Assembly: GCA_022794295.1 (NCBI GenBank)
Contig: JAAWEO010000001.1
Location: 6,969 to 70,968 of the forward strand
Length of the DNA stretch: 64,000 bases
Reading direction: 5' to 3'
From: Angelakisella sp.
Lineage (GTDB): Bacteria; Bacillota; Clostridia; Oscillospirales; Ruminococcaceae
A program made the translations under genes and the position numbers. The first letter of the stretch is position 1; every line of letters starts with the position of its first letter. The notes under the pieces were generated by a model, which was given only the letters and a program-made list of their open reading frames with translations, searched no databases and had not been told where the DNA came from. Below are positions 36,417 through 64,000 of this stretch, in pieces.

Positions 36417-38585
36417 TCATGTCATCGTTGGCTCATGGTCATCTCGTTTGTGACCCTGGGCCGCTTTCTTTTCCTGTATTTTTCGCTTCAGTTTACTGTC
36501 CACCTTCACTTGGATGCCCTGGGAGGATGGCGGCACTTGCTCCCGAAAGATGTTCCCCAAATGGCGCAGCAGGTTTGTAGTCCCCTGCACAAGAAGATGG
36601 TCGCGGAAATCATTCAGGTGGATCAGGAAATATTGGGCATAGAGATTCCCCTGCCCGGCAGAGAGTGTGAGCCAGTAGACAGCGGTTTCCCGGTCACGCT
36701 CCACCTCTTGACCCAACAGGAACAGCTTGCCCAACACATACTGAGCGTGCTGGTTTCCGGCCTCCGCTGATCTCACCAGCTGATTTATGGCACCTGCTTT
36801 TTCATCGGGGCTGGATGTGGGATCTGCAAAGATCATCTTTGCCAGCTGATACTGCGCCTGCGGGTTTCCCAGCAAAGAAGCCTTTTCAAACCAGCCTTGG
36901 GCAGCAGCTTCATCCTTCTTCGCTCCAACTCCATGAAGGAGCATCCAGCCGATTCGATACTGGAGTTTATCATCGTGGCTTTCCTTTTCCATGGAACGAA
37001 AACCGAAAAGCGCCTGTGAAAAATAGTCCTCCGCTGTTTGACTGTCTTTCTCGCCGCCGATACCGTCCTGGTACATTTTGGCCAGCTCATAGACTGCATA
37101 GGGGAATCCTTTCTGCGCAGCTTTCCGGTAAAGCTCTCTTGCCTTAACAGCGTCCTGTTCAACTCCTTGGCCCTTGAGGTACAACCCCGCCAGAGAGTAC
37201 ATCGCATATTTGTTGTTTTGCTCTGCCGCTTCCCGAAACCAACTGGCGGCTTGCATATAGTCCTGCTCCGTTCCAAGACCGGCGGCATACATCTTGCCGA
37301 TGCGGTACTCGATATAGGGAGTTGGTTCTGCTTTGAGGAAGGCATCGAGAGCCTTTTTATACCAGCTTTGCGCCTGCTCCATGTCGATCTCCCGGCCCAG
37401 ACCATCCGCAAACATTCTGCCAAGGTCATACATGGCAAGGGCGTTTCCGTCCTCAGCTTCTTCCAGAAGAAGGGCAAAGGTTTTCTCGAAATCCGGCGGT
37501 ATATCGCTGTCGCCATAAAGAAAATCCATCGCCATTTTGTAGCGGTCGCTCCAAGAAATCTGCGGGGTGAGGGAATCATCGACCAGATTCTCTTCCTCTG
37601 ATCCTTTATCCAAATCATCCTCCGGAGAAAAATATCCAGTAAATTCTCTTATCTGCATCGCTTCCCGGATGACCAGATTCTTGATCCGCTTGAACTCCTT
37701 CTGCTGAGAGAGTGGCAGCCGTTCCGGCATCTCGTCCCGGTATGTGTGGAGGACATCCTCCCGCATCTGATACCAAAGGTCATAGGCTTCCGCAATGCGA
37801 GGATCCTTCGCCAGCTCGTCCACGATCTCATCCACCACAGCTTTGAGCGGGGCTTTCAGATAGCCATACTGCTTTTTCCCGCTGGTGTGCCGCAGCTTTT
37901 CTACCAGTTGGAGCAGCAGTTCTCCGATCCGCTCATTCTCCAAGCTGCCGGTCTGCATTTCTTGGACAAGCTGTTTCAGCGCATTCTCGCTTTTCCTCGT
38001 GAGCTCATCCCTCCGCCGGGTCTGCTGGGAATAGATCTCGGTCAGCTCCTGCCGGAATATCTCCTTCGCCAATCCAGACTTGATTTTTGCCAGACCGTCT
38101 TTGGTGAGAAAACCGGATTTCCCGTCTGCGCTGAAGCAGACCATATGGACATGAGGATGGTGGCCCTCATCATGAAAGGCGGCGTACCAGCGAAATTGAT
38201 CCAGCGGTATTTTCATAATAGTCGCCATCTCCACAGCATAAGACGAGAGCAGACTTTTCCACGCCCCAGCGTGGTTGTAACCCAGCCGCTCGGCGTCTGC
38301 CCGCTGCAAAGAGATGATAGGCATCCACACATTGCCAGGATGGTTCGCTATCCTCTCTGCCACCTTGGACAGGGAAACGGTTTCGTCTGTTCCAGTAAAA
38401 AGGGCGTGTTCACCAACCCGCTCCGCACGAGGACGGGTGGCAACATAGTTTAAGTAGTTCTCTTTCTGCTGGATCCGCTCCGCGCCATCCCGCAGGGAAA
38501 TGTACCGCACATAATTTTTGAGGTGGGCCGGAGCCCTGCGGCTTTTTCCTTTGATGTACGGAAACTTGACGATCAGCCGGGGCAT
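36417..38585 (-). CDS. Relaxase (MobP3/MobL-like) with SEL1-like repeats
   Basis: YVRYI, YVATRP, WYAAFHDEGHHPHVH (HUH); repeated A.Y.LG.MY..G.G. Confidence 0.88.
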   Translation of the reverse strand: MPRLIVKFPYIKGKSRRAPAHLKNYVRYISLRDGAERIQQKENYLNYVATRPRAERVGEHALFTGTDETVSLSKVAERIANHPGNVWMPIISLQRADAERLGYNHAGAWKSLLSSYAVEMATIMKIPLDQFRWYAAFHDEGHHPHVHMVCFSADGKSGFLTKDGLAKIKSGLAKEIFRQELTEIYSQQTRRRDELTRKSENALKQLVQEMQTGSLENERIGELLLQLVEKLRHTSGKKQYGYLKAPLKAVVDEIVDELAKDPRIAEAYDLWYQMREDVLHTYRDEMPERLPLSQQKEFKRIKNLVIREAMQIREFTGYFSPEDDLDKGSEEENLVDDSLTPQISWSDRYKMAMDFLYGDSDIPPDFEKTFALLLEEAEDGNALAMYDLGRMFADGLGREIDMEQAQSWYKKALDAFLKAEPTPYIEYRIGKMYAAGLGTEQDYMQAASWFREAAEQNNKYAMYSLAGLYLKGQGVEQDAVKARELYRKAAQKGFPYAVYELAKMYQDGIGGEKDSQTAEDYFSQALFGFRSMEKESHDDKLQYRIGWMLLHGVGAKKDEAAAQGWFEKASLLGNPQAQYQLAKMIFADPTSSPDEKAGAINQLVRSAEAGNQHAQYVLGKLFLLGQEVERDRETAVYWLTLSAGQGNLYAQYFLIHLNDFRDHLLVQGTTNLLRHLGNIFREQVPPSSQGIQVKVDSKLKRKIQEKKAAQGHKRDDHEPTMT

Positions 38586-38587
38586 GG

Positions 38588-39031
38588 CTACACCTCATTC
38601 TGGTAGCGCACTGCATCCAGAAAGGTGATGTTCCCGCCGGTCTGCCGCACCTCTTGGACGCACCGCTCCCGCAGACCTTTCAAGGTGCTTTCGCTCACCT
38701 CCATCCCTGCCGCCAAGATATTCATCATCATATCTACTTCCACCGCCAGTTTGAAGAGCAGCCGGGCAAGGCGGCCCTCGCTGTCCCGGATCGTCCCCTT
38801 GAACGCCGCCACCAGCGCCGGCGGCAGATAGGCACAGGCGTCTTTCCCGGAAAGATACCCGGCATAGAACAGCGCAGCTTGATCCAGAAACTCACTCCGG
38901 CTCTTGCAGTTGCCACGCTCCAGCGCGCCATCCATAACCGCCATTGTGGAAGGGTACAGCCAGACCGGGATGCGCTCTTTGACCTCGTCCTTCTTCTCCT
39001 GCTCCGTAACGGCAGGTTCTTTCTTCTCCAT
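38588..39031 (-). CDS. Relaxosome accessory protein (RHH-like)
   Basis: IPVWL...KSRSEFL..A..FY, RLLFKLAVE; directly upstream of the relaxase. Confidence 0.65.
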   Translation of the reverse strand: MEKKEPAVTEQEKKDEVKERIPVWLYPSTMAVMDGALERGNCKSRSEFLDQAALFYAGYLSGKDACAYLPPALVAAFKGTIRDSEGRLARLLFKLAVEVDMMMNILAAGMEVSESTLKGLRERCVQEVRQTGGNITFLDAVRYQNEV

Positions 39032-39440
39032 TCTGAAACTCTCCTTTCCATCTTCCGACCACCTGCCACAGCCACCTCTCGAAATGGCTTGGCAAGCGAT
39101 TCTATTCTTCTTTTTCTCTGTCTTAGACCACCCAACACAGCAATTTGCTTCCTAAACCGACCACCTTTAGAAAACTCCCCGACCCGCATTGCGGGGCGGT
39201 GTGGGCGGCAGGAGGGCGCGAAAGCGACCACCTGCCTTAAACCCGCACTTTTTTCGACCCCAGCACCTGACCTTCAAAGGGTGCTTCTGCTCCTTTTCCT
39301 AACCCCGGTCAAAAAGCCCCAACAGGGGGCCTCACCGCCTCGCAGGGGTACGGATGCCACCCCGCCCCAGAAATCGTCACACAGGGTGAAAACGGGGCGG
39401 ACAGCGGGGATTCGGCTGCTCGGTGTTCACATCATCTGCA
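39032..39440. other. Probable oriT region
   Basis: About 400 bp non-coding with short inverted repeats, upstream of the accessory and relaxase genes; nick site not identified. Confidence 0.4.
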
Positions 39441-39674
39441 TTACCGGGCTGGATCTCTACTTTCCGCCTTTGCCGACCGTCTGGGTCGCTCCCTTGCCGG
39501 AGCGGATCTCCGGTCCAGATACTCCCGTACCGCCTCCGGCACCGTCTGCTCATAGAGGGCCAGCAGCTCCTCCTGCATCTTCTTTTGGACGCTGGACTTT
39601 TCTTTCCGCAGAGAGAACTCCAACGCCTCCAGCTTCTCCTCCTCGAAGGAAAGTGTGATCTCGATTTTCTTCAT
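39441..39674 (-). CDS. Small conserved ICE protein (DUF6103-like)
   Basis: ITLSFEEEKLEAL...LYEQTVPEAVREYL. Confidence 0.7.
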   Translation of the reverse strand: MKKIEITLSFEEEKLEALEFSLRKEKSSVQKKMQEELLALYEQTVPEAVREYLDRRSAPARERPRRSAKAESRDPAR

Positions 39675-39685
39675 AGAGACCTCCT

Positions 39686-40177
39686 TCACCATGGGTAATA
39701 AAATTCCAGCCGAGGATCAAGCTGCGGCTCGTTTCCTTGAAACTGTACCGGCTCCCCGAACATCTCCTGGCACTCCGCCATCTGCTCATCGGTGAGAGAA
39801 ACGAAGCCGCCCTCCCCGTCATCCCCCACAAGGAAGAACGGCCCGCAGACGATGTCCCCGCCCAACCAGCGGTTGGGGGCCATGCCGTTCAGCTTCCCCT
39901 CCTCATTGCAGCAGAGGACGATGCCGTCATCCAGATAGACCGGCTGGAACAGCCCGCCGCCGACCTCCTCCTGGACACTGTGCAGATCATCTTTGATTTC
40001 TTTTTCATAGGGGACTTCTCCCGGCTCCACCTTCAAGATGCGGAGAGGAGATTCCTCCATTTCAATAGGGATCGTAGCGATGGGAATTACATCGAGATTT
40101 CCTTTATCGCCCATCAGCTCCAGCAGTTCGTTTTGGGTCTCTTCATTAAGGTCACCCCAATAGATCTCGTACTCCAT
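39686..40177 (-). CDS. DUF3846-like protein
   Basis: LKVEPG, VQEEVGG, CNEEGKLNG..PNR. Confidence 0.75.
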   Translation of the reverse strand: MEYEIYWGDLNEETQNELLELMGDKGNLDVIPIATIPIEMEESPLRILKVEPGEVPYEKEIKDDLHSVQEEVGGGLFQPVYLDDGIVLCCNEEGKLNGMAPNRWLGGDIVCGPFFLVGDDGEGGFVSLTDEQMAECQEMFGEPVQFQGNEPQLDPRLEFYYPW

Positions 40178-40188
40178 TTTTACCTCCG

Positions 40189-41286
40189 TTACAAATAGTT
40201 TCGTGGGTTCTGTGGCACACCATCCCGAATCACCTCCAGATGGAGATGCGGCCCGGTGCTTCTGCCGGTGCTGCCGCTTTTGGCGATAACATCACCGGCA
40301 GATACGCTCTGCCCCTCGGTCACCAAAATTTCAGAGCAGTGGGCGTACATCGTCACCAGCCCGCCGCCATGGTCAATGGCGACATGGTAGCCATAGCCGG
40401 TCTGCTTGTACCGGACGAATAACACTTTGCCATCCTTCACCGCATGGACTTCTGTCCCCAAAGGGATCGCTATATCCAACCCGGTATGGCCCTCGCTGCC
40501 CGCTCCGGTGGGGTTCTGGCGATACCCAAACTCGCTGGTGACCTTATCACGCCAGCCGCTTTCCAGAGGACTGATAAATCCGGCAGGCGAAGGGACTACC
40601 TCGGAATCTTTGGTCAGCTCTTTGATCAGATCATGGGTCCCATTTCCTCCTTCCAGATTCATGTCTGCGCTCACATCGAAGTTGTTGTACTGCACCCGCA
40701 GGTAGATCTCTGTGATGTTGGCGCTGTCATCCACCGTAACCTCCCGCCCGGCATACCTGCCCACATTGGCATAGATAACAGGCAAATCCCGGATGGGAGC
40801 GGCGACGATGTAGGTTTCTTCTTCCTCGTAGGGATCACCGTTTTCGTCGTACTCGGTCACTGTCCGGGTGCGGGTTTCATAGGTAACGAAGCAATCTACA
40901 AAAGACTTTGCCGCTGCAGACCGCAGCCGCAGGTGATCCTGCCCGAAGTACAGAGCATAGAAAACAGCCTTGACCCGCACCGAATCAAGGCTGTCACTGC
41001 CCTCCATCTCCGATTCCACTGCCGAGATGGCTCTGTCCAACTTGGAGAAACAGGAGCGCATTTCGGTGATATAGGTCTTATACTCGGATGGCATGGTCAG
41101 TGGGATCATCCCGCCCTTGAAGGTGAGCCGCACCGCTGCGTTGTTATGGCTGGCTGTCCCTTGGAGCATGGAGCAGAGGATCACCACGATCAGGAGGAAG
41201 GGGGTGAGGATGGAGGCAACAGCGATTGCCGCCGTTTTCCAGGTCCGCTTATTGGTAAGCAAAACTGCCGCTTTCAGAGTTGTCAT
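40189..41286 (-). CDS. M23 peptidase (conjugative cell-wall hydrolase)
   Basis: HTGLD, YAHCS, STGPHLH. Confidence 0.9.
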   Translation of the reverse strand: MTTLKAAVLLTNKRTWKTAAIAVASILTPFLLIVVILCSMLQGTASHNNAAVRLTFKGGMIPLTMPSEYKTYITEMRSCFSKLDRAISAVESEMEGSDSLDSVRVKAVFYALYFGQDHLRLRSAAAKSFVDCFVTYETRTRTVTEYDENGDPYEEEETYIVAAPIRDLPVIYANVGRYAGREVTVDDSANITEIYLRVQYNNFDVSADMNLEGGNGTHDLIKELTKDSEVVPSPAGFISPLESGWRDKVTSEFGYRQNPTGAGSEGHTGLDIAIPLGTEVHAVKDGKVLFVRYKQTGYGYHVAIDHGGGLVTMYAHCSEILVTEGQSVSAGDVIAKSGSTGRSTGPHLHLEVIRDGVPQNPRNYL

Positions 41287-41291
41287 CTTCG

Positions 41292-44768: not shown

Positions 44769-44778
44769 AGAACACCCC

Positions 44779-45633
44779 CTACATCGTCATTTTGGGAAAT
44801 GACTGGCCCTGTTCCATCTCCTGTGCCTGCCGAAGGGTGAGCGGGCGGGACAGGATGCCATCGATCTCCTTCTCCGGCATAAACAAATGCAGATTCTGAT
44901 TGGCGTAGCGGCTTTCGTGGTAGAGCAGTACGCCGCACAGCTCCCCCATCACCTTGCAGGCATCCAAGCTGTTTTCCAGTGTTTTCATGGTCCCCAACGA
45001 AAGGGTATTTTTAGGGCTGCCAAAATCCCCCCGAATAAAGCAATCCACATAGATCCCCTCTGAGCCGCCGAAGCTGGGAACAGCGCAGAGGTCAAACTGA
45101 TAATCCGCTATCAGGGCTTCATCATCTTCTTCAGGCAAAGTATAGTCCTCAATTTCCCCAAAGCGTTCCCAGTCGCCGCTCTCCTTCGCCGATTCCACGA
45201 CCTTCCGAAACAGCTTCCCTCCGGTGAGCCGCATCGCCTTTGCTTCCTTGTGGAGCCACTGTTGAAACTGTTCCTCCGGGGAGTGCCATTGGCATATTTG
45301 TCCTGCTATGACCGGAATCACATCCTCAAAAGGCTGTCCGTCCTCCCCATCGGAGAGCTTTTGCGACAAATCTTCTTTGTCGTCCTCGTTCAGCTTTTCC
45401 AACATGAGGGTCAGCATGACGCAGTCCTTGACGGATGTTCCGGTATTGACAAGCTGTTCCTTCAAAACAGCATCCAACTGATTGTTTCCTGTTTTGAAAG
45501 TGATCTCTGCCTCGCCATAGCTGATGAAATAAGGCACACTGCCCTGTATCAGCTCCGGCAGGGCACAGGGCAGAAAGAGGGAACAGCCATTTCCGGTTCG
45601 CTCGGCCAGTTTGATTTTGATCATATCGTTCAT
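44779..45633 (-). CDS. Hypothetical ICE protein
   Basis: GGAGGTG RBS; FGGSEGIYVDC motif; ends PKMTM. Confidence 0.7.
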   Translation of the reverse strand: MNDMIKIKLAERTGNGCSLFLPCALPELIQGSVPYFISYGEAEITFKTGNNQLDAVLKEQLVNTGTSVKDCVMLTLMLEKLNEDDKEDLSQKLSDGEDGQPFEDVIPVIAGQICQWHSPEEQFQQWLHKEAKAMRLTGGKLFRKVVESAKESGDWERFGEIEDYTLPEEDDEALIADYQFDLCAVPSFGGSEGIYVDCFIRGDFGSPKNTLSLGTMKTLENSLDACKVMGELCGVLLYHESRYANQNLHLFMPEKEIDGILSRPLTLRQAQEMEQGQSFPKMTM

Positions 45634-45713
45634 GTCGTTTCACCTCCGCAAATAAAAAGGCCCTGCGGTTTTTAGCAAGGCCCGGTTTTGATTCAGCTTT
45701 CGCCGCTGACTTT

Positions 45714-46778: not shown

Positions 46779-46790
46779 GGAGGGGTTTGT

Positions 46791-50974: not shown

Positions 50975-51298
50975 TTAACCCATCTGCATACTGAGATCCG
51001 CTTTCTGCCGGGGCGGCTCCGGCTGGGCCTGGGCCGCTGTCTGGTGATGCTCCAGCGCCTGATGGTAAGCGGTCACTGCTGCCTCGGTCATCTGCTGGCG
51101 CAGCCCGGCGGTGGTGGGAAAGCAGATGTCCACATACCCGCTCCGCCCCTTATAGCTGGGGAAATTTACAAACAGGCCGTTTTTCCCTTCCATGAGCCGA
51201 AGCCCCCGGATGGCGAAGCAGTCATCCAGTGTGGCGGACAGCCGGGCCAGACACTTGCCCTCCTGCTCCAGCGACTGCACCTTCATGTCAATTTTCAT
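50975..51298 (-). CDS. SpoVG-family nucleic-acid-binding protein
   Basis: FAIRGLRLMEGKNGLFVNFPS...YVDICFP. Confidence 0.85.
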   Translation of the reverse strand: MKIDMKVQSLEQEGKCLARLSATLDDCFAIRGLRLMEGKNGLFVNFPSYKGRSGYVDICFPTTAGLRQQMTEAAVTAYHQALEHHQTAAQAQPEPPRQKADLSMQMG

Positions 51299-51310: not shown

Positions 51311-51802
51311 TTACATCACAACAGGCATAAAGCCTTCTTCATCCAGATACCAGAACTCCGAGCCGCTCTCATCGTACAGCTCCACCACATCGGAAACGGA
51401 CAGCCGGTGGCCGGTGTAGCCCTTGGGGAGTTTCTCCTCATTGAAAACCTCGTACAGCTGGTTGAGGTCATCGGTATCCAGCCGCCCATCGAAAACTACC
51501 CGGTAGTCCTCCGGGGTGATCCCTCCATACCGCTGGTACAACAGGGCATAACAGATGAACTTCTTCTCCAGCGTGGTCTGGGGCTTCATCTGGTGTACCC
51601 GCACCTTCCGAGGCAGGGGCTTCTTTTCCTCCTCTGCTAAGAGTTTCTGCGCCAGCCCCGGCTCATAGCGCATTTTTGCTCCCCGGTAGGCCAAGTTGTG
51701 CGAGACCTCCCCGGCCCAAAAGTCCTCGTCCAGCACAGCGGTATCCCCATCGAAATACCCGATGGCGATGCCGCCCTGGTGGATCAGCTGACGCTCCATC
51801 AT
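51311..51802 (-). CDS. YodL-domain protein
   Basis: LYEVFN...YTGHRLSVSDVVEL...YLD..GF. Confidence 0.8.
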   Translation of the reverse strand: MMERQLIHQGGIAIGYFDGDTAVLDEDFWAGEVSHNLAYRGAKMRYEPGLAQKLLAEEEKKPLPRKVRVHQMKPQTTLEKKFICYALLYQRYGGITPEDYRVVFDGRLDTDDLNQLYEVFNEEKLPKGYTGHRLSVSDVVELYDESGSEFWYLDEEGFMPVVM

Positions 51803-52445: not shown

Positions 52446-55400
52446 TTAGATGCCGGTCTTGGGCAGCTTGCCCTTGGGCTGGCCCCAGACCACAGTGATC
52501 CAGGTATCCTTGGCGGTGATCCACTCATCACCAGTCCTGCCGCCGACATCGGCCCGGTTGATGATGCGGTAGCCGGTGGTCAGATCGGCCAGAACATTCA
52601 CATAAAATACTGGCTTGGTTTCCTCATGGAATCCCGGTTGGACCGTCCCAAACTCAAACTGGATGTCAGTGACATACTCTCCGGCGGCAAGGTCAAGGGC
52701 CTCCCGGCTGCAATCTAAGGTGTGGCTGGTCTTGCTGGACAGATTGGACGCCAGGGTCCGGTAGCTGTCCTTTTTATTGGTGCAATATTCGACCGAGTAG
52801 TTCAACCGTTCGCTCCAAGTGCCGGTGACGATCTTGCTCAGGCGGACCGCATCGGTGGGCAGCTGGTCGTGGAAGTAGAATTCCTCCAAGGCGGTGTTGG
52901 AATCGTTGCGGATATTGCTGAAATCGTAGGACATGATGTCCCCGGCCAGCACCTCCATATTGCCGCGCTTCTCGATGGAAACGCTGACATTTTCGCTGAT
53001 GTTCAGCACCTCAAAACGAACGATGTCATCGTGGATTTTGAGCGTGGCATAGAACACTTTCCCGTCCAGAAGGTAATGCTCCGGGGCGGCGATTTCTTTA
53101 ATGCCATAGGTCCCCATGGGCAGGGGTTTGGTGGTAGCAACGCCCTTGCTGTCGGTGGTGATGGTATCCACTACCTCCAGCTTTTCGTTGTAGACATCGA
53201 ACACAGCCCCCTCCAGCAGAGCGCCGGCCTTGTCCTTGGTGATGGGGTTATCGTCCGCCGCCTTTTTGATGATCTGGATCTGGCCTTTCATCAGTTGGTT
53301 TTCGATGACAACTTCGGTGGTTTCCCCGGACTTCACCTCAATGGTGCGGATGGTGGGGTTTACCACATACCCGTCCGCCTTGATTTCCTTCAGCTTGTAC
53401 TTCCCGGCGGGTAAACCTTTGGAAAACTCGATGATACCCTCCTGGTCGGTGGTGTACTCACCCAAGAGGTTATTTTTTGCGTCATACAGATTGAAGGTAA
53501 CACCATAGATAGGCTCTTTGGTTTCGGCGTCGATTTTCTTGATCCGCAGAGTAGCCTTTTCCTTGTTGAGAATCTCAACAGTGCTGGTCTGGCCCCAAGC
53601 AAGAGTGACCTCCCGGACAGTCTCGTCCAGCTCATACCCCGGTAGGGCTTCTACCTCCTGCACATAAAGGGTTTCACCGCCATCCATGCCAGACAGAAGA
53701 ATCTGCCCCAGCTTGTTGGTGATGTAGGTCCCCATCTCCCTGTGCTGCTTATCGAACACTTTGACCTTTACCCCCTCCAGCGGCTGACGAGTCTCAGCGT
53801 CCAGTTTGACGATTTTGAGGACCGGATAGGGCTGGTTGCGATACTCTACCACATTTAGCTGGCCGGATTTCAGCTCGATGGTTCGAGGGGCAGGGTCGGG
53901 CTTGTAACCGTCTAAGCCCTTGACCTCGGCGATCTGCACCCAGCCTTCCTCCCGGTCGGTGATGTTGATAACGCCATCCGCATCGGTGGTGAAGGTCCCA
54001 ATAACGGCCCCGGAAATCTCAGTGACCTTGAACTGTACCCCTTCCAGCGGCTCTCCGGTCACATCATCCACCTTGCGAATCTGGAGGCCGGTGCGGGGTT
54101 TGTTGGTAAATTCCACAATAGCGGGAGTGGAGAGTTTCAGCTCCACCATTTTAGTCTCATTGCTGGCGATATAGGCAGGATTAGCCTTGACCTCCTTCAC
54201 CAAATACCAGCCGGGGACCACATCCTTGCCGGTAACGGTGACCATGCCATTAGAGCCGGTGCGGTACTCGCCCACCAGCCGTCCGTCCGAATGGGTGACC
54301 AGAAAAACGGTATCCGGGATGGGCTCGCCGGTGATAGCGTCCTTTTTGGCGATGATAAGGGGATGCTCCGGGGTGTTCTGGAGCTTAATAACGCCGTTTT
54401 CGGCTTCCTGCAAGGTAAACTCATGGACAGTATCGTCTGCCAGATACCCCGGCAGTGCCCGGACCTCTTTCACCAGATAGATCTGGTTGGGGTCTGCATC
54501 CTCCAGGACGATTTTCCCTTCTGCATTGGTGCTGAACTGCCCCAGGGATTTGCCATCTTTGATGCTGATCTCAAAGACAACGCCCTCCAGCGGCTGCAAG
54601 GTCATGCTGTCGATCTTCTCAATGGTAAGGGTGGGCTTTTTGCGGTTTTTAATGGTCAGTTCGGCGGTCTTTCCTGCCACCAGCTCCACATCGTAATGGG
54701 TATCATCAGCGGTGTAGCCGGTGGGGCAGCGGAATTCGTAGACCTCGTACCAGCCAGGCTCCAAACCTTCTGCCAGCACAGTCCCGTTGCCCCCGGTGGT
54801 CACATCCACCGATTCCCCGGTGGAGCGATTTGTGACCCGGAACACCGCGCCAGAAAGTCTCATTCCAGAATCAGCGTCGATCTTCTCAAGAAGGAGACCA
54901 GGCTTTTTGCTGTTCTTTACGGTCAGCTCCACTGTTTTGCCCTGAATGAGTTCCACATCATAGTGGGTATCATCCCCTACATATCCGGTAGGGCTGCGAA
55001 GCTCAAAAATCTCGTAATGGTCTGGATCCAAATCCTCCACCAGAACAGTCCCGTTGGAGCCAGTGGTCACATCCACATACTCGGTGGAGCCTTTGCGGGC
55101 TACCCGGAAAACGGCTCCCGGCAGACGCGCTCCGGTATCCGCGTCGATTTTTTCAATGAGCAGACCGGGCTTTTTGCTGTTCTTTACAGTCAGTTCGGAG
55201 GTCTTTCCGGGGATCAGCTCAATGTCATAATGGCCATCATCCGGGGTATACCCTGTAGGGGCGCGGAGTTCGCTGACCTCGTACCAATCCTGCTCCAAAT
55301 TCTCCAGCAGGACAGTGCCATCCGCCCCGGTAGTCACATCCACATATTCAGCGGAGCCGCGGCGGGAGACCCGGAAAGTCGCCCCCGGCAGGCGGATGCC

Positions 55401-57569
55401 GGTCTCAGCATCTACCTTCTCGATGAACAGCTTCGGCTTGGGCATATTGCGGAACACAACGGTCAAATTCCCGTACACCGCCTCCGGCTTGATAAGGACA
55501 GTCTGGGTGCTGTGTTCAGCATCCAGAAAATACCCGTAGGGCGGCTGGGATTCCACAATGGTGTAGTATTTTCCGCTCTCCAGTTTCTGCACTACCACGA
55601 TGCCGTTCTCATTGGTCTGGAAGTCCCCAAGGAACTTTGTAGTTTCGGCAGCGGTGCCCTCGTAGAGCTTGAAAACAGCATTTTGCAGGCCATGACCGTC
55701 GGTGGCATCCACCTTTTTGATGGTCAGGCCGGTCCAAGGCTCGTTCTGAAACTCTACAGTGATGGTCTCGCTGTTCCCTTCGGGGATGTTGACATTGTGG
55801 ACCTTGGTCGTCCCCTGATAATACTGGGGCGGAGATACCTCCTCCACCCGGTACTCACCGGGGATGAGGTTGGAAAAGACCGCCCGGCCATCTGCGCCGG
55901 TGGTCTCGGTAAAGGACTGCCCGGCCTCGAAGGGCGGGGTGTTGGAGCGCAGGAGGGTCGCCTTGATGGAAGCCCCTGCCAGCAGCTGCCTGGTTTGGGC
56001 GTCCTTTTTCAGTACCACCAGCTGGGACTTCTTATCGTTGGGGATGTCCAGCACCTTATGCTCGCCCTTGGCGACGGTCACATCGTAGGTGGTTTTGGCA
56101 TTCATCACATACCCGGCGGGGGCAGACAATTCCTCCACGATCAGCGACCCAGCGTAGGGCAGAGGGATATAGATTTTACCCTCTCTGTTGGTGGTCTCGG
56201 TCCAAGTCTGGGCGGAAATGCTGGGATCAGCGTACCGGATGCGGAAGGAGGCCCCCTCCAGAGCGACGCCCTTGTTCCCGGTCTCGTACTTGTAGATGGT
56301 GAGAGAGCAGGGCATTGCGGTATTGACGAAGGTCATAGTGGTTTCCCGGTCACCCTCAATGAAGTCAGCAAATTCCTCCACCTGGGGGTCACTTTCTGTT
56401 TCGGCGCTGGAGGAAGAACTGCTTTCCGCTACCACCTCGCCGGTCTCGATGTCGATGACAGTGCTGCTGGTGGTCTCGGTGACGATGGTGACAGTCCAGG
56501 TCTCCACATGGGTCACCCGGGTATAGGTGGGGGCCACCACCGCGGTCTGCGGGGTCCGGTCCAGAAGATACCCGTTGGGGGCCTTGACTTCTTTGACGGT
56601 AACGGTGGCAGGATCGTGATTATCGGCGGGATGGGTCCAAGTAAAGAGCCGCGCTCCGTTGTCCACCTCCCAGCCTTCGACGGTGGTGTGGCTGCCATCA
56701 CTGAACGCTACATCTATATCGAACAGCGCACCGTCCAAACTCTTTTCATCCTGGTCATGTTTGCGAATGGTGATCTGCCCGATACTATCGCTGTATTCGT
56801 AGGTTTTTTTGTTCCTGACCTCGGTTTCGGTGCTGGTGTCGGTCTTGACCTCTACCCGGTACTTGCCATCCTCGGTCTCAGGCGGAATGAAGGGGTCATC
56901 ATCATTATCATAGGTGAGGATCTTCTGTGTCCCGCCGCTCCATGTGATGTAGTTATACTTTACATTGGTGTAGTCAGCATCCCCATTAAAAATCTCGTCT
57001 GCAGAGGAGCGGCCGGGGCAGGCGCCCCAGGATGCCACAGAGGTACCCATAAGGTGTGCCCAAATGGCGGCTTGAGCGGCAGCGTAGTCGGCGTTGGTTT
57101 TGCCGGAATTGTGGTAATTGGCAAGGATCTGCTTGATAGCGGGATCACTGCCCTGCCCACTCTGGATATAATCCCCCTCCGGGGGAACGCCGTTCCATTC
57201 TGCGCAAAACGCCACCTTGCCATTCAGAGTGATCTTGGGCATCCCGTCTCCCAAGTAGGCCCCATTGGCAAAAACCAAGCGGTTGCTTTCCCCACTGGCC
57301 CAAGAGATAATGGAAAAGCTGGGAGAGGCGCTCCCGGAAGCGGCTCTCGCTTTTTTGGGGCCGGAAGCCGTTTTTTCGATTTGGGATAGTGCGTACTCTT
57401 GGTAAAGCTGGAGCCAATGCTTCGGTTCCTCTCCGCCGGGAGCGCCGCTGTCCATGATCTGCGGATTATCTCCCGATTCTGCCGCCAAAGCAGACACCGG
57501 CATCATTGTCACCAGCATCATTACAGACAGAAGAAAGCTGAGTACCCGTTTCAATGTTTTCTGCATCAT
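52446..57569 (-). CDS. Large surface adhesin with many SpaA/CnaB-type repeats
   Basis: Signal peptide; repeated I.K.DA.T...L.GA.F and E..AP.GY units; ends LPKTGI. Confidence 0.92.
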   Translation of the reverse strand: MMQKTLKRVLSFLLSVMMLVTMMPVSALAAESGDNPQIMDSGAPGGEEPKHWLQLYQEYALSQIEKTASGPKKARAASGSASPSFSIISWASGESNRLVFANGAYLGDGMPKITLNGKVAFCAEWNGVPPEGDYIQSGQGSDPAIKQILANYHNSGKTNADYAAAQAAIWAHLMGTSVASWGACPGRSSADEIFNGDADYTNVKYNYITWSGGTQKILTYDNDDDPFIPPETEDGKYRVEVKTDTSTETEVRNKKTYEYSDSIGQITIRKHDQDEKSLDGALFDIDVAFSDGSHTTVEGWEVDNGARLFTWTHPADNHDPATVTVKEVKAPNGYLLDRTPQTAVVAPTYTRVTHVETWTVTIVTETTSSTVIDIETGEVVAESSSSSSAETESDPQVEEFADFIEGDRETTMTFVNTAMPCSLTIYKYETGNKGVALEGASFRIRYADPSISAQTWTETTNREGKIYIPLPYAGSLIVEELSAPAGYVMNAKTTYDVTVAKGEHKVLDIPNDKKSQLVVLKKDAQTRQLLAGASIKATLLRSNTPPFEAGQSFTETTGADGRAVFSNLIPGEYRVEEVSPPQYYQGTTKVHNVNIPEGNSETITVEFQNEPWTGLTIKKVDATDGHGLQNAVFKLYEGTAAETTKFLGDFQTNENGIVVVQKLESGKYYTIVESQPPYGYFLDAEHSTQTVLIKPEAVYGNLTVVFRNMPKPKLFIEKVDAETGIRLPGATFRVSRRGSAEYVDVTTGADGTVLLENLEQDWYEVSELRAPTGYTPDDGHYDIELIPGKTSELTVKNSKKPGLLIEKIDADTGARLPGAVFRVARKGSTEYVDVTTGSNGTVLVEDLDPDHYEIFELRSPTGYVGDDTHYDVELIQGKTVELTVKNSKKPGLLLEKIDADSGMRLSGAVFRVTNRSTGESVDVTTGGNGTVLAEGLEPGWYEVYEFRCPTGYTADDTHYDVELVAGKTAELTIKNRKKPTLTIEKIDSMTLQPLEGVVFEISIKDGKSLGQFSTNAEGKIVLEDADPNQIYLVKEVRALPGYLADDTVHEFTLQEAENGVIKLQNTPEHPLIIAKKDAITGEPIPDTVFLVTHSDGRLVGEYRTGSNGMVTVTGKDVVPGWYLVKEVKANPAYIASNETKMVELKLSTPAIVEFTNKPRTGLQIRKVDDVTGEPLEGVQFKVTEISGAVIGTFTTDADGVINITDREEGWVQIAEVKGLDGYKPDPAPRTIELKSGQLNVVEYRNQPYPVLKIVKLDAETRQPLEGVKVKVFDKQHREMGTYITNKLGQILLSGMDGGETLYVQEVEALPGYELDETVREVTLAWGQTSTVEILNKEKATLRIKKIDAETKEPIYGVTFNLYDAKNNLLGEYTTDQEGIIEFSKGLPAGKYKLKEIKADGYVVNPTIRTIEVKSGETTEVVIENQLMKGQIQIIKKAADDNPITKDKAGALLEGAVFDVYNEKLEVVDTITTDSKGVATTKPLPMGTYGIKEIAAPEHYLLDGKVFYATLKIHDDIVRFEVLNISENVSVSIEKRGNMEVLAGDIMSYDFSNIRNDSNTALEEFYFHDQLPTDAVRLSKIVTGTWSERLNYSVEYCTNKKDSYRTLASNLSSKTSHTLDCSREALDLAAGEYVTDIQFEFGTVQPGFHEETKPVFYVNVLADLTTGYRIINRADVGGRTGDEWITAKDTWITVVWGQPKGKLPKTGI

Positions 57570-57616
57570 ATCTTTCCTTTCCAATAAAAATAGTCGCCCG
57601 TTTTACCGAGCGGCGC

Positions 57617-57644
57617 AAAAAAAGGAGCCGGTGAAGGCTCCTTT
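57617..57644 (-). terminator. Intrinsic terminator
   Basis: AAAGGAGCC-ggtgaa-GGCTCCTTT with a U-tract on the minus strand. Confidence 0.55.
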
Positions 57645-57667
57645 GCGATAATGGGGTCTTGTATGGG

Positions 57668-58540: not shown

Positions 58541-58607
58541 GGCATTCTACCTCCTGCTCATAAGGATACCAGGAAAGATGAAGTAAAGCTATACCCAAAA
58601 CCACCAA

Positions 58608-59357
58608 TTAAACCTCCAAAGCCTGCACCATTAAGCGCATATTGGCCTTGCCGGTGATGCAGGTGATGAGGGTGATCCGGTTGTCCTCGGTGCGGCCAAG
58701 ATAAGACCAGTCATCCTCCACGATCTCCTTCACTTCGCTGACTTTGTACTGCCGTTCGCCGAGAGCGGTTTTATAGAAGATGGTATCGCCCTCTGTCAGC
58801 TGATGGATGTCCCGGAAATAGGCCACCGCTCCGGCGGGGGCAACATTGTGGCTGCAAAGGGCGATGTTCCCGGCCCATGCAGAAGTGGTGGCGAAATGAG
58901 CCACTCCCTTGGTCATGGATTCCATCTCGCCACCCTCCTCGGTTTCGTAGACCGGGGCGGACAGATTCAGGGAGGGGATGGTGAGGACACCCACCGCTCC
59001 GTCCTCCAAAGCAGCTTCTTCCGGCAGGGTATAGCTGTTGGTGGAGAGGGATGCTGTATTCTCCCACACCCGGGCGGGGTCGGGGAGACACTCCACCGGC
59101 TTCGCCTGGGACTTACCCGGCTGTTCGGCGGCAGGGATCACCACCACTCCATCCTCAGCAGTATAGGCTTTGTTAGTGTCCATATCAAAGGTCACTTCGC
59201 TTTCAGCAGGGGGAGCCGCCTCCGTCCGGGGAAGGGAGGTGTAGTCCTTGTGCGCCTGCCCTGCGGTAAGGCCGATTGCCACCACTGCCAGCGGAACACC
59301 CAGCAGCAGAAACCACCCGCCGAAGCGGTACCAGATCTCTTTCAGCTTTTCCTTCAT
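58608..59357 (-). CDS. Class D-like sortase
   Basis: N-terminal TM; LTIPSL, GNIALCSH, TLITC...R. Confidence 0.88.
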   Translation of the reverse strand: MKEKLKEIWYRFGGWFLLLGVPLAVVAIGLTAGQAHKDYTSLPRTEAAPPAESEVTFDMDTNKAYTAEDGVVVIPAAEQPGKSQAKPVECLPDPARVWENTASLSTNSYTLPEEAALEDGAVGVLTIPSLNLSAPVYETEEGGEMESMTKGVAHFATTSAWAGNIALCSHNVAPAGAVAYFRDIHQLTEGDTIFYKTALGERQYKVSEVKEIVEDDWSYLGRTEDNRITLITCITGKANMRLMVQALEV

Positions 59358-60430
59358 CGCTCATCCTCCAGTCCTCTGTCCATCTGCCGGAGCATCTCCG
59401 GGCGGTGCATCTTGGGCCGGTCTGCGTAGGGGTCCTTCTGGACCTTCTTCTTCGGTACCTGCTTGCGGCAGAAGACCACCAGAAAAGCGATGCCTACAGC
59501 CGCGCTTGCGGCAGCGCCGACCACCAGGATCACCAGACCAACGGTTTTCCAAGGAAAGGCGCTGCTCTCCGGCATGATCTCCTTGTACACGATGCTGTAC
59601 ATGACCTGCCCCTTGGCAGTCCGGCTGACCTCGCCGGTGTAGTCGGCAGTGACGGTATAGCCGTCCGCCTTACTGCCCCATGCAGTCCCTGTGTACAGAG
59701 CGGTGGCTTTGAACAGAGAGGGAACCTCGCTGTTGTCCGCGGCACTTGCCATGGGAGTCCAGTCCACATTCGCAAGGGATAGGGTAACGCCGTTTTTCTC
59801 GGCAGTCTTGGGGATGTAGGCCAGATCATTCCGGTCTAAGTTGGGAAATTCTTTTTCCTCCTTTAGGGTGTAGGAGTAGCCGGAGGAGCCGCTTTCCTTG
59901 GCTTTAATACTGTCTTTGTCCAGTGTAAGCACCCCGGCGAAGCCATCTTCCCGGTAGTCCAGAGTGGACTTCAGCAGAGGGAGTATATTTTCCGGCTTAT
60001 CCGTTTCGCTGTTCACGGTCACAGCTTGGGAAACTGTTTTCCGCTCGGTATCCCCGGCCATCTCCCGGCGCAGGATGTCGGTGGCTTCATAGGCCACACC
60101 CCGGCGGGTCAGCTCTTCCTCGATGAGCGCCGAGGGTGCTGTGTCCTCCGGTACAAGGAAGGTCTTGACCAGCAGCCGGACGCCGCCATCCTCGGAGGTC
60201 TGGACTGCCACCGGGTAATAGCTGCTGACTGCGTAGGCTTTCGTTTCATCTTTTTTGCTCTCCTTTTCTGTCTGAGGTTCCGTTTTCTGCTCCCCTCTGG
60301 GGGTGATGTCGGTGATGGCGATGGTCGTCCCGCCCTCACTGCTGCCGATCTCGGCGGCGTGGGCGGTGACGGACAACGCCATCGCTGCCGCCAGCACCAC
60401 CGCCAGGATCAAAGCGATTTTCTTTTTCAT
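59354..60430 (-). CDS. Membrane-anchored surface protein
   Basis: Signal peptide and C-terminal TM. Confidence 0.75.
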   Translation of the reverse strand: MKKKIALILAVVLAAAMALSVTAHAAEIGSSEGGTTIAITDITPRGEQKTEPQTEKESKKDETKAYAVSSYYPVAVQTSEDGGVRLLVKTFLVPEDTAPSALIEEELTRRGVAYEATDILRREMAGDTERKTVSQAVTVNSETDKPENILPLLKSTLDYREDGFAGVLTLDKDSIKAKESGSSGYSYTLKEEKEFPNLDRNDLAYIPKTAEKNGVTLSLANVDWTPMASAADNSEVPSLFKATALYTGTAWGSKADGYTVTADYTGEVSRTAKGQVMYSIVYKEIMPESSAFPWKTVGLVILVVGAAASAAVGIAFLVVFCRKQVPKKKVQKDPYADRPKMHRPEMLRQMDRGLEDER

Positions 60431-60442
60431 CTTTCGTTCCTC

Positions 60443-60865
60443 CTAAAGCGTCATCTGGGGGAATTGACCTTCCACCAGTTGTTCTCTGGCTTCCTGCGCC
60501 ATTTCTTCTACTGCCCGAAGATACTGCCGGACGAAGCCATCCACTACCACGGAGTGAGCATTCAGACTGTAAGCAGGATCTTTGGATGAAGCGGGGCAGG
60601 CATTGGCCCACTCCACCGTCCGGCGGCTGAACCGCTCATCCCAGGAGCGCTCCCGGACAGTGCTGGCCAGCACAGCTTCCACCTGCCGGAGCCCAAATTT
60701 TTCGATTGCATTTCTGGCACAGCCGCTTTTCAGGCAGCTGCCATCGAAGCCATCCCGGAGGATCTCCTCGATCCCGTCCCGGCAGGCGACCTTGGCGAAA
60801 TGCTCATCCAGCCACTGTTCCGCATCCTCTTGATCTCTGGGCGGGTAAACATACGGCTCGATCAT
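60443..60865 (-). CDS. DUF3849-like protein
   Basis: VLASTV...WDERFSR..VEWA...HSVVVDGFV; ends PQMTL. Confidence 0.75.
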   Translation of the reverse strand: MIEPYVYPPRDQEDAEQWLDEHFAKVACRDGIEEILRDGFDGSCLKSGCARNAIEKFGLRQVEAVLASTVRERSWDERFSRRTVEWANACPASSKDPAYSLNAHSVVVDGFVRQYLRAVEEMAQEAREQLVEGQFPQMTL

Positions 60866-61149
60866 GTGTCAGCCCCCTCCTTTCTGGCCCGCTCCAGCAG
60901 CCGGGCGGCAATCGCTATCTGTTTCTCCCTGGGCATCCGGTCGGTGGCGGCGGTGACATACGCCTCCATCGCCTCCGGGGAAAGGTCGCCCATTTCGATA
61001 AGATGGACTTTGCGGAGCTGCACACCGCCCCGCTCCACCAACAGCTTTACGATACACCCCGGCTCCATGCCCAGCCGTTCCCGCAGCTCCTTGGGAATGT
61101 ACACCCGCCCTTTGGCGTCGATGAGCCGATATACAGGTTCCTTCATCAT
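60862..61149 (-). CDS. AbrB/MazE/SpoVT-family DNA-binding protein
   Basis: IDAKGRVYIPKELRERLGMEPG. Confidence 0.85.
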   Translation of the reverse strand: MMKEPVYRLIDAKGRVYIPKELRERLGMEPGCIVKLLVERGGVQLRKVHLIEMGDLSPEAMEAYVTAATDRMPREKQIAIAARLLERARKEGADT

Positions 61150-61571
61150 GCAAACCACCCGTCCCTTTCCAGAATATCCCACACCTCACGAGGGGAGATG
61201 CCGGCGTCCTCCATTACGGCGCACAGTTCCTCCGGCAGCAGCTCGCTGATCTCGTCCCGAATGACTGCCGCCTCCTCATCCTCCAGCGGCTCTACCAAGA
61301 TACGCCCTTTCTCGATAGTGAGGGACACATCCTCCAGCCCGGCGACATGGAAAAGGCCTGCATCCTCCAGCACATCCGCCGGGAGATACAGGCCAGCTTT
61401 CTCAGTCATGGGGTTGCTCCAGTCCACCGCAGCTCTCCGCAGGTGAAGGGCAGTCTTTTCCAGCTCCGCCGCAAGGCTCCGGAACAGCTCCGGCACCGAG
61501 GGACTTCCTTCCATACCGCTGTTCAAGCTGCTCTCGAACAGCCTTGCCATCTTCTTTTCGTTTCTCTGCAT
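61146..61571 (-). CDS. Hypothetical protein with an AbrB-like segment
   Basis: AAGGAG RBS; LYLPADVLEDAGL...IEKGRILVEP. Confidence 0.6.
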   Translation of the reverse strand: MQRNEKKMARLFESSLNSGMEGSPSVPELFRSLAAELEKTALHLRRAAVDWSNPMTEKAGLYLPADVLEDAGLFHVAGLEDVSLTIEKGRILVEPLEDEEAAVIRDEISELLPEELCAVMEDAGISPREVWDILERDGWFA

Positions 61572-62529
61572 TTCTTTCTCCTTTCGCTATCTGCGTGTAT
61601 TTTTTCTCTCCCGGTTCTGCTTCCGGGCTTTGGAACAGGGTCATTTGCCGGGGCTTTGCGTATTCTTCCGGGTCATAGTTGGTGATGATAAGTTCCTTGT
61701 ACTCCCCGCCGCCGCTGTTGTTCCGAAGGGGATTGGGGCGGCTGGTGGAAAACTGCCAGAAGCCTTGGTACAGTTCCCGGATAAAGGGGTGGTCATTGTA
61801 GGACAGCACCACAAAGGACCCTTTACATTCGCAAATCAGCTCTTGCAGCCGCAGATGATCCGCAAAGTTAAAGGGGACATCGTAGCATTCTGCTTCGTAG
61901 TAGGGCGGGTCGAGGTAGAGGAGTGTCCCCGGCGCATCGTAGCGGGGGATCGCCGCCTCATAGCTGAGATTCTCAATGACCACATCCTTGAGCCGCTGGG
62001 AACAAAGCCAGATGTTCGCAAGCCCCCGGCAGATGTCCAGTGGTCTGGCTCCGTAGGAACTGCCCCCTGCTCCGTAGCTGTATCGGATGACTTTGTAATA
62101 GGCGGCGGCCCGCTGAACATCCCACAGGCTGGCCCGTTCCAGAAGGACCTTTTTTAGGATAGCGGCATCTGCCGGGCCGAGAAACTCATTGCAGATCTCC
62201 AGTTCTTCCTGCAGGAAGCAGTTAGCCGGTTCCTTCTGATCCAGAAAATCTCTTAAAACCTGGAAGGATACACGACTGTTCAGCGGCAGCCAGCCTACTT
62301 CCTTGCAAAAGGCCAGCGTTCTGTACTTGACGCAGAGGAACAGGTTCACCAGATCCCGATTCAAATCGTTGTATATCTCGATTTGTCCCCGCTGGGGACT
62401 TCGCCCGAACAGGAGGGCCCCGCTGCCGCCGAACACCTCCACATACCGGTCGAAGCGGTGGGGGAACAGCCGGTACAGGACAGGCCGCAGGGCGGTCTTT
62501 CCTCCCACCCAAGGGATAAAGGGTTTCAA
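61402..62529 (-). CDS. Dam-like (D12 class) N6-adenine DNA methyltransferase
   Basis: WVGGK, YVEVFGGSG, YNDLN, YLDPPY, VLSYND, ELIITNY. Confidence 0.92.
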   Translation of the reverse strand: MKPFIPWVGGKTALRPVLYRLFPHRFDRYVEVFGGSGALLFGRSPQRGQIEIYNDLNRDLVNLFLCVKYRTLAFCKEVGWLPLNSRVSFQVLRDFLDQKEPANCFLQEELEICNEFLGPADAAILKKVLLERASLWDVQRAAAYYKVIRYSYGAGGSSYGARPLDICRGLANIWLCSQRLKDVVIENLSYEAAIPRYDAPGTLLYLDPPYYEAECYDVPFNFADHLRLQELICECKGSFVVLSYNDHPFIRELYQGFWQFSTSRPNPLRNNSGGGEYKELIITNYDPEEYAKPRQMTLFQSPEAEPGEKKYTQIAKGERNAEKRKEDGKAVREQLEQRYGRKSLGAGAVPEPCGGAGKDCPSPAESCGGLEQPHD

Positions 62530-62612
62530 TCATCGCTCACCTCGTTTCAGATCAACAAAAAAGAGCCGTTTCTCCTTGCTCGGAAAAACGGCTCTGGTTT
62601 TTGTTGTTCGTG

Positions 62613-63749
62613 TCAACACATCCCACCCATCGTCATACCGATACCATAGCAATCTGTTTGGGTGTGGGGACTTTCTTCATATATTTCATCGTGCATATCG
62701 TCTATCGCTTTACGGATGACCGGGTCATTGGTCAGGGTCTCATATTGAAAGCCTGTCCGGAGATGATGAGGAAGTTCATCATGGATGACTTGAAGGTATT
62801 TCTGTGCATCGGTGAAATTCCACAGATCGCCGTTGGCAAAGGTCACACGCCCGATAAACTCGCATTCCTCAGTTGGCTCCGGGTCTTGATATTGGAACTG
62901 ATCCTCATGTTCCTGATCTGCGATCTCAAAGACACAGTGTTTTTCCGATTTGTAGAAGTGCAGAGCAGTAAAGGTCTGGTCCACCTTTTGGAGAGCGGAA
63001 CAGAACCAGTCTTTTTGGTCGGGAAGCAGGATGACCCCGTTTGACAGCACAATGCTGTCTGCGGGCTGGTCACAGGGTGGATAATAGGTAAAGGGCGGAT
63101 AATGCGCTTGTGGATCCTCGCAGTCCTTCAGGTTCATTCCACGGAACCCGGGTGCCTCGGCTTGCAGATATTGCAGACCTTCCATAGTCTCTACCCCAGC
63201 ACGCTCCCGTTCTGCCTCTTCCAGCTCTCTGCACAGCCTTTCTATCCCGTATGGAGAAAGCTGCTTCTCACAAAACGCATCCGCGATCTTCGCAGTGCGG
63301 ATCTGGTCTCGGAAAAAGAAGGCATCCCGCAGGATCAAATTCCGCTCCGGCTGGCTGAACACAGGGGCCTTTTGCTCATATTCCTCTAACAGCTCCATCG
63401 CCGGAGAGAGATCATACCCCGCGGCAAAGCCCTCCTCCTGTCGCAGTACGATCTCCCGTTCCACCATCCGGGCAACAACAGGATCGACATGGCCACAGCG
63501 TTTCTCAAAATCACATCGTTCCAAATGCTGTGCCAAGCGTTTCAGCTGCCGCAATTCATGTCCTCCGCAGGAAATATCGATGGTATTGGCATACCGACAC
63601 AGGAGGAGCCATTCATTTGGGGCTCTGATCCGGTCTCTGGCTGCGCTTAGGAAAAACCGCGCCTGCCCAACAGGGGAGCGAATGGGAACGGTCTGGTCGC
63701 GGGATATGTCATAATAGGCACGGTAGTCGAAATCGTAATTTCCGATCAT
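62613..63749 (-). CDS. Hypothetical ICE protein
   Basis: GAGGTG RBS; 378-aa ORF ending GMTMGGMC. Confidence 0.7.
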   Translation of the reverse strand: MIGNYDFDYRAYYDISRDQTVPIRSPVGQARFFLSAARDRIRAPNEWLLLCRYANTIDISCGGHELRQLKRLAQHLERCDFEKRCGHVDPVVARMVEREIVLRQEEGFAAGYDLSPAMELLEEYEQKAPVFSQPERNLILRDAFFFRDQIRTAKIADAFCEKQLSPYGIERLCRELEEAERERAGVETMEGLQYLQAEAPGFRGMNLKDCEDPQAHYPPFTYYPPCDQPADSIVLSNGVILLPDQKDWFCSALQKVDQTFTALHFYKSEKHCVFEIADQEHEDQFQYQDPEPTEECEFIGRVTFANGDLWNFTDAQKYLQVIHDELPHHLRTGFQYETLTNDPVIRKAIDDMHDEIYEESPHTQTDCYGIGMTMGGMC

Positions 63750-63841
63750 GCGAGTTCACCTCGTTTTTGCATCTTATCCCTCATTCCAAGGCATAAAAGA
63801 GGGCCCTCCCTCCCGACGGAGGAAACGGCCCCTTTGTACCT

Positions 63842-64000
63842 TTACATGGTCATGGTCATTGTCATTGTGGATCCTTCTTCGTGCAGACGCTGGAAGGGCT
63901 TTTCATTTCTGCGGATACAGTATCCGTTTCCGGTGGTGATATAGCCCTCATCTTCCATCAGAAGGGAGCCGCATTTTTCCAGATCGAAGCAGCCCGCCTC
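63842..64000 (-). CDS. 3' end of a gene that starts outside the window
   Basis: Hand translation EAGCFDLEKCGSLLMEDEGYITTGNGYCIRRNEKPFQRLHEEGSTMTMTMTM-stop. Confidence 0.6.
   Translation of the reverse strand, partial: EAGCFDLEKCGSLLMEDEGYITTGNGYCIRRNEKPFQRLHEEGSTMTMTMTM

Follow-up and report, generated by a model that had tools for sequence, protein, structure and literature searches.

Why should the relaxase of a conjugative element and a series of unrelated soluble proteins encoded beside it end in nearly the same few residues? The question is raised by a 64,000-nucleotide stretch of the genome of Angelakisella sp. (GenBank GCA_022794295.1, contig JAAWEO010000001.1, positions 6,969 to 70,968; G000:C206:6969-70968 in our genome set), referred to here as the window. 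An integrative and conjugative element (ICE) has its backbone at 33.7-64 kb of the window and in the next 5 kb of the contig, with all of its genes on the minus strand. A first-pass annotation of the window had described a 'Met-rich' C-terminal tail on the relaxase and several unrelated ICE proteins. We found that the tail is real, conserved, and common to the relaxase and soluble ICE proteins, and that the term 'Met-rich' is imprecise, since Leu and Phe also fill the core of the tail. All six C-termini that had been quoted are exact on re-reading.

A conserved C-terminal tail on unrelated proteins of the element

The relaxase, the DUF3849 protein and a 284-aa protein of this ICE are unrelated in fold and sequence, yet share the free end P-x-M-[T/Q]-[L/M]. 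In the family of the 284-aa protein, 16 other full-length homologues (33-70% identity) were compared, of which nine end in [FS]PxM[TAI]M and the remaining seven, more distant, have longer ...QQM ends such as ...EMTMGGQQM and ...PEMQMGQQM. A further homologue lacks the tail, and its end is unrelated. The 10-15 residues that precede the tail in this family are freely variable. All 16 database relatives listed for the DUF3849 protein (49-99% identity) end in FPEMx[LF], FPQMTL, FPKMTL or FPEITL after a variable linker. Thirteen homologues of the relaxase with the same MobL-Sel1 architecture (49-81% identity) gave the family pattern ...KKxAxGHKxDDHEPxM[TQI][LMQS], with ends such as HEPEMQL, AQEMTM and HKPTMTL, and the Met is kept in 11 of them. 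The SpoVG copy on the chromosome of this genome ends in ...LGLDSVQGE, with no Met, while the three ICE-borne SpoVGs that we compared end in ...DLSMQMG (window), ...GPVMEMG (contig C221 of the same genome) and ...EGGPAMSM (the ICE of genome G646, described below).

AlphaFold2 gave a predicted local distance difference test (pLDDT) score below 50 for residues 269-284 of the 284-aa protein and for residues 711-722, the last 12, of the relaxase, and the tail is modelled as a flexible, disordered free end and not as part of a domain. No PDB fold match for the 284-aa protein was returned by Foldseek at E <= 0.001. The conserved core has two parts: a disordered linker, acidic or polar, and behind it, at the free C-terminus, the pattern hydrophobic-x-hydrophobic, in which the hydrophobic residue is Met, Leu or Phe and Gly is often present. 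Judged by these alignments, the tail is a conserved C-terminal feature that is selected at the protein level.

The first-pass annotation had proposed a comparison of ICE with chromosomal C-termini, and the enrichment is present. The background was the rest of the same genome, represented by a crude automatic set of 2331 open reading frames (ORFs), and the ICE set comprised 32 ORFs, from which the automatic procedure had swapped out several true ICE genes for spurious opposite-strand ORFs. 'MT' within the last seven residues was found in 4 of the 32 ICE ORFs and in 11 of the 2331 others (Fisher p=3e-5), and MT[ML] in 2/32 as against 0/2331 (p=2e-4). In a hand-curated list of the minus-strand ICE proteins, six of ~40 have at least two Met in their last eight residues, compared with 26/2331 (1.1%) in the background, for which a hand Poisson estimate gives P ~7e-6.

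The tail set is larger than was first counted, with five more carriers past the end of the window, including the rest of the 338-aa protein that the window cuts (full ORF L049:111-1127, minus strand). Just beyond the boundary, an ArdA protein ends in ...SSGLQMGGIGGM (last residues LQMGGIGGM), a 103-aa protein in ...REGGMTFEQSF, and two DUF4314 proteins in ...NEQGGMTFG and ...LCQRM. Inside the window, the YodL-domain protein is a possible but uncertain carrier; its Pfam match extends to residue 161 of 163, so its end may be part of the domain. Reading of the C-termini bore out the earlier statement that the T4SS (type IV secretion system) membrane parts and the cargo genes are without the tail: in this ICE it is absent from VirB4, TrbL_5, the M23 peptidase, the VirD4 coupling protein, both methyltransferases, the sortase, the adhesin and the genes resembling toxin-antitoxin (TA) systems.

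Family assignments were made with Pfam. The transfer genes encode a VirD4-type coupling protein, a DUF3991-Toprim primase, a MobL relaxase, VirB4, TrbL_5 and an M23 peptidase. Further families in the ICE are DUF3846, SpoVG, YodL and DUF3849, with ArdA and the two DUF4314 proteins past the window end, and the cargo consists of a sortase/SpaA adhesin/CAP module, two DNA methyltransferases and small antitoxin-like genes. The coordinates of the tail carriers and of the two adjoining transfer genes are collected in the table.

Table. Tail carriers and adjoining transfer genes of the Angelakisella ICE (window coordinates)
Feature	Position	Strand	Family and other properties	C-terminal end	Tail encoded at
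VirD4-type coupling protein	33716..35506	(-)	596 aa; one N-terminal membrane helix; Pfam T4SS-DNA_transf, TraG-D_C, TrwB_AAD_bind	no tail	
DUF3991-Toprim primase	35485..36420	(-)		...RVCPTFGC, no Met tail	
MobL relaxase with C-terminal Sel1-repeat domain	36417..38585	(-)	Pfam MobL, 6 Sel1 stretches	...DDHEPTMT	~36420-36431
284-aa protein	44779..45633	(-)	no Pfam family	...QGQSFPKMTM (tail ...SFPKMTM)	~44782-44799
ICE-borne SpoVG paralogue	50975..51298	(-)	Pfam SpoVG	...ADLSMQMG (tail ...DLSMQMG)	~50978-50992
YodL-domain protein (possible carrier, uncertain)	51311..51802	(-)		...EEGFMPVVM	
DUF3849 protein	60443..60865	(-)	Pfam DUF3849	...EGQFPQMTL (tail ...QFPQMTL)	~60446-60463
378-aa protein	62613..63749	(-)	no Pfam family	...YGIGMTMGGMC (tail ...GIGMTMGGMC)	~62616-62639
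338-aa protein, C-terminal part	63842..64000	(-)		...EEGSTMTMTMTM	~63845-63868

Two features of the surrounding genes can be noted in their own right. The listed primase ORF starts at an ATG that overlaps the relaxase stop (ATGA; window 36402-36420), and the more likely true start is an ATG 18 nt downstream, after an AGGAGG box (MPYIHF...). The SpaA-type adhesins of this ICE (window 52446-57584, minus strand) and of other elements (G000:C221:7093-11229; G721:C9 = L065:13933-19461; L006:3-614) stop right after the sortase motif, with the ends ...LPKTGI, ...LPNTGI, ...LPQTGF and ...LPKTGY, and have neither the hydrophobic segment nor the basic tail with which a cell-wall sorting signal usually continues. 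Found in four separate elements, these ends look like a conserved oddity rather than a truncation.

The tail in other elements and its link to ICE lineage

The same genome holds another ICE fragment, related to the first, on the 14.2-kb contig C221 (G000:C221), with its own tailed SpoVG and a YodL protein that ends in ...EEGFVPVMM. The C221 homologue of the 284-aa protein is 39% identical and ends in ...GPKMEREVQQEAPR without the tail; a frameshift is possible.

We searched 400 Clostridia genomes for Pfam DUF3849, inspected the surrounding DNA, and obtained four further, independent elements from other Clostridia host families (f42, f48 and f104); counts in these other elements were made by hand from printed ORF ends. 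In each, there are 5 to ~22 proteins with G-M-x-M at the end, often extended by G-G-M, behind a linker of acidic or polar residues, as in ...DEGYGGMTM, ...KDEGMQMGGM, ...EEQGMQMSGM, ...ESAGMNMDGM and ...SEEMTMGGM. On the 49.7-kb contig G646:C180, which is ICE throughout, 13 of 55 ORFs have at least two Met in the last eight residues (P ~1e-13 against the 1.1% background, by hand estimate), and ~22 ORFs are tailed by eye. The G646 carriers include a MobL relaxase (...LGIKMG), three ArdA proteins, DUF4314, SpoVG, DUF3846, DUF3849, LPD28, DUF6329, DUF6550, DUF7659 and several unknowns; no tail was seen on the coupling protein, VirB4, membrane proteins or flanking chromosomal genes of that ICE. 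When the 378-aa protein of the window was compared by BLASTP with a 380-aa protein of the G592 ICE, the sole common stretch was MTMGGM, at residues 372-377 and 375-380, respectively. Primase orthologues of other Met-tail elements end in ...FDIKL, ...FAMKM and ...VRMGFC.

Tails of this type are also present on a small plasmid, OY725859.1 of Subdoligranulum variabile (circular, 8,097 bp), which encodes a MobL-Sel1 relaxase (...FEPQM), a primase (...VRMGFC), a VirD4-type coupling protein and a few small genes, among them one for a 165-aa protein ending in ...TWQMML, and which has no channel genes. Its PLSDB type is non-mobilizable, and its gene content suggests a mobilizable plasmid equipped with a coupling protein of its own.

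The tail is confined to certain ICE lineages, and it was not seen in most of 48 loci around distant relatives of the 284-aa protein. In a second ICE clade (L050-L059), giant DUF3849-bearing polyvalent proteins of 2,460-2,908 aa can be found (e.g., L055:872-9592 and 9593-10105, L056:1620-9881), and several proteins share a different end, KLxRPLP followed by 6-12 residues and then K-x-E-[L/M]-E-x. Host family f42 holds both types, with the Met tail in G592 and the second tail in G693 and G643. The coupling protein of the window is 56% identical to that of the G646 Met-tail ICE and 27-31% identical to those found in second-clade genomes, four of the latter lying 10-22 kb from the ICE loci. Tail type thus tracks ICE lineage and not host family, which favours a reader encoded by the element over a conserved host protease. 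In a Eubacteriales metagenome-assembled genome (L009, JAUNGB010000001.1), at least six neighbouring proteins encoded by ORFs between 497 and 17741 end in -AA (RAA, QAA, VAA, EAA, KAA, GAA), and these may be ssrA-like ends or a further type of shared tail, carried by a mobile element.

Possible roles of the tail

We consider the chances to be about even that the tail is a T4SS recruitment or translocation signal. This reading is suggested by the fact that the relaxase shares the tail with families predicted on other grounds to travel with the DNA. In T4SSs, substrates are known to be received by the coupling protein. The carriers belong to anti-restriction and polyvalent-protein families (ArdA, DUF3849, DUF4314, DUF3846, SpoVG and LPD28), and the relaxase is the established T4SS protein substrate in conjugation (PMC5826034).

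In the mechanism that we propose, the tail is a short linear motif at the free C-terminus, made up of a disordered acidic or polar linker and then [P/G/E]-Met-x-[Met/Leu/Phe], optionally running on through Gly to a final Met. Many unrelated soluble proteins of one Firmicutes conjugative lineage (MobL, VirD4-type, MPF-FA channel) would have acquired it independently of each other, and it would function as an address label for which the element itself supplies the receptor; the most likely candidate is the cytoplasmic domain of the coupling protein. Through this label the relaxase, the primase and the establishment or anti-restriction proteins (ArdA, SpoVG-like, DUF3849, DUF4314, DUF3846, perhaps YodL, and two unknowns) could be gathered at the mating channel, from which they would probably pass into the recipient together with the DNA or before it. 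What the sequences show directly are the motif, its position, its conservation and enrichment, the set of carriers and the tie to ICE lineage; the receptor and the export are predictions.

Several observations weigh against this proposal. Two of the 13 relaxase homologues are without the Met (...HENHVQGYDPR and ...HEEQIQQFK), and the relaxase of this element is itself one residue shorter than the family pattern. Some likely soluble proteins of the ICE have no tail, namely DUF3846, the primase and both methyltransferases. The motif is loose and its register varies (Met at -1, -2 or -3; -MG, -MTFG, -MELK), so tail calls made by eye can over-count. Known T4SS C-terminal signals differ, the VirB/D4 signal being basic and the Dot/Icm signal being recognized by DotM. 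All parts of an ICE co-vary by descent, and for this reason the match of tail type to coupling-protein clade does not point to the coupling protein in particular. Both binding to the coupling protein and export are steps that we infer from sequence. A complex prediction for residues 30-596 of the coupling protein (30-row alignment) with the DUF3849 protein (15-row alignment) scored 0.00, under the mark, and counts neither way.

Among the alternatives, one that we regard as unlikely is that the tail is a C-terminal degron, by which a host or element protease would keep the relaxase and anti-restriction proteins short-lived in the donor or clear them after establishment. Bacterial degrons usually take the form of disordered C-terminal tags, and a cost could arise if the carriers stayed active for long. 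However, the tmRNA (transfer-messenger RNA) tag of the host, VNDNRTVAYAA, has the classical Ala-Ala end and is unlike the Met tail, and none of the ICE tails here ends in AA, as an ssrA-like ClpXP degron would. The occurrence of different tails in ICE lineages of one host family also suits a host protease poorly, and the only protease gene found in the ICE by the Pfam scan is that for the M23 cell-wall peptidase. That same lineage pattern would fit a docking peptide for another element-encoded hub such as the Sel1 domain of the relaxase, so that accessory proteins would gather at the relaxosome or travel with the relaxase, and TPR-like (tetratricopeptide repeat-like) domains often clamp C-terminal peptides. 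The relaxase has six Sel1 repeats, and the MobL+Sel1 architecture is very common (>7,000 database hits). We nevertheless hold this to be rather unlikely: the MobL relaxase of the G646 ICE (461 aa) has zero Sel1 repeats and yet ~22 tailed proteins are encoded in its element (the relaxase of a sister element, in G418, has two Sel1 stretches). Moreover, the relaxase is itself tailed, and AlphaFold2 leaves its tail undocked and disordered at residues 711-722, an observation that is not decisive.

It could also be supposed that the tail acts in the recipient only, by binding a conserved host factor such as a component of replication or restriction, and has no relation to the transfer machine. Many of the carriers (ArdA, SpoVG-like proteins, primase) do act on DNA or counter host defences, but a host ligand should not vary with ICE lineage inside one host family, and carriers of very different activity would all need one and the same host partner, which makes this explanation quite improbable to us. 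We give almost no credence to chance, composition or a by-product of nucleotide sequence, in which ATG starts or ribosome-binding sites of the next genes overlap gene ends. There is little space between the genes, and an ATG overlaps the stop of the relaxase gene (ATGA), but the downstream ribosome-binding sites are located after the stops, two tails are followed by >80 nt of spacer, and no in-frame ATG that precedes a stop could serve as the start of the following gene. Leu or Phe replaces the last Met in homologues, and the Thr codons of the tails vary (ACA and ACC in that of the 338-aa protein), which indicates that the repeat there is kept at the protein level. The strong enrichment over background and the retention of the tail across homologues of 33-81% identity likewise argue against chance. 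A nucleotide-level artefact was rejected on the position of the ribosome-binding sites after the stops, the variable Thr codons and the Leu/Phe substitutions.

If the tail is a recruitment or translocation signal, a wider proposal can be made, which we advance tentatively and hold with less than even confidence. Gram-positive conjugative elements may possess a modular, lineage-specific C-terminal address code, in which each tail type (Met-ended; K-x-E-[LM]-E; possibly others) is matched to its own coupling protein and marks up to ~40% of the soluble proteins, including multiple ArdA and SpoVG-like proteins, primase and relaxase, for injection. Were this the case, conjugation in Firmicutes would also be a mass injection of protein, and the injected set would be readable from the genome sequence. 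The injected anti-defence set could then be predicted for thousands of gut-microbiome ICEs, small plasmids with matching tails that borrow an ICE channel would be explained, and there would be a handle with which to study or block the spread of genes in the gut. A tag readable in sequence would make it simple to ask by experiment how Gram-positive systems choose their protein substrates and which proteins they send besides the relaxase. Full-text literature searches with motif strings and for Gram-positive T4SS signals returned no description of the tail.

Comparison with known C-terminal secretion signals

In every carrier and homologue examined, the tail ends at the stop codon, and the element has its own gene for a VirD4-type coupling protein. 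Substrates of the Agrobacterium VirB/VirD4 system (VirE2, VirF, VirD2 and others) carry a positively charged C-terminal signal with an Arg-rich consensus that is read by VirD4. The tail resembles this signal in being a short, unstructured extreme C-terminus on unrelated proteins, the relaxase included, as part of a type IVA-like machine that has a VirD4-type coupling protein. It differs in being acidic or neutral and based on Met, Leu, Phe and Gly, with no Arg pattern (e.g., QEMEQGQSFPKMTM, EGQFPQMTL, DEGYGGMTM). Unlike the Agrobacterium system, the present one is Gram-positive (MPF-FA) and conjugative, and translocation of the tailed proteins by it is a prediction.

Dot/Icm signals are also known to include a hydrophobic residue near position -3. 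In Legionella, effectors of this system carry a Glu-rich 'E-block' that is bound by DotM of the coupling complex (PMC5802825, PMC7280309). The tail partly resembles them in having an acidic stretch followed by a hydrophobic residue 2-4 positions from the free end, and here too there are many unrelated carriers per machine. Compared with the E-block itself, the linkers here are acidic or polar and Met is at -3 in ...EMTM and ...EMTL, but there is no fixed E-block and the register varies. The tail is also shorter, more sharply conserved and Met-specific, and the ICE proteins that were scanned with Pfam include no homologue of DotM, DotN or IcmSW. The Dot/Icm E-block and the basic VirB/D4 signal may best be regarded as functional relatives of the tail that differ from it in sequence.

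The FtsK-HerA ATPase superfamily includes both VirD4 proteins and EccC, the ATPase of the type VII secretion system (T7SS). The T7SS signal of EsxB (CFP-10), ...L-x3-M-G-F-COOH, places Met98 and Phe100 in a pocket of ATPase3 of the FtsK-like EccC, with Gly99 also needed, and the fit between signal and ATPase is species-specific (PMC6954902). Like EsxB, the tails have a disordered end, Met at -3, Gly and a hydrophobic last residue, as can be seen to varying degrees in ...GGMTFG, ...SMQMG, ...VRMGFC and ...GMTM; the likeness is one of sequence only. Unlike EsxB, the carriers (MobL, ArdA, SpoVG, DUF3849 and others) are not WXG100 hairpins and have no YxxxD/E, the ATPase is VirD4 and not EccC/EssC, and the machine is a T4SS. 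The EsxB signal is the nearest chemical precedent for the tail.

Iyer et al. (2017) predicted that ArdA, YodL, LPD-domain and other polyvalent or anti-restriction families are delivered with the DNA (PMC5512222), and the same protein families carry the tail here. Text searches of PMC5512222 turned up no C-terminal signal for that set, and the tail would be the missing sorting mark of these polyvalent and anti-restriction proteins. With this predicted role, the tail would belong with the C-terminal secretion signals that are read by a secretion ATPase.

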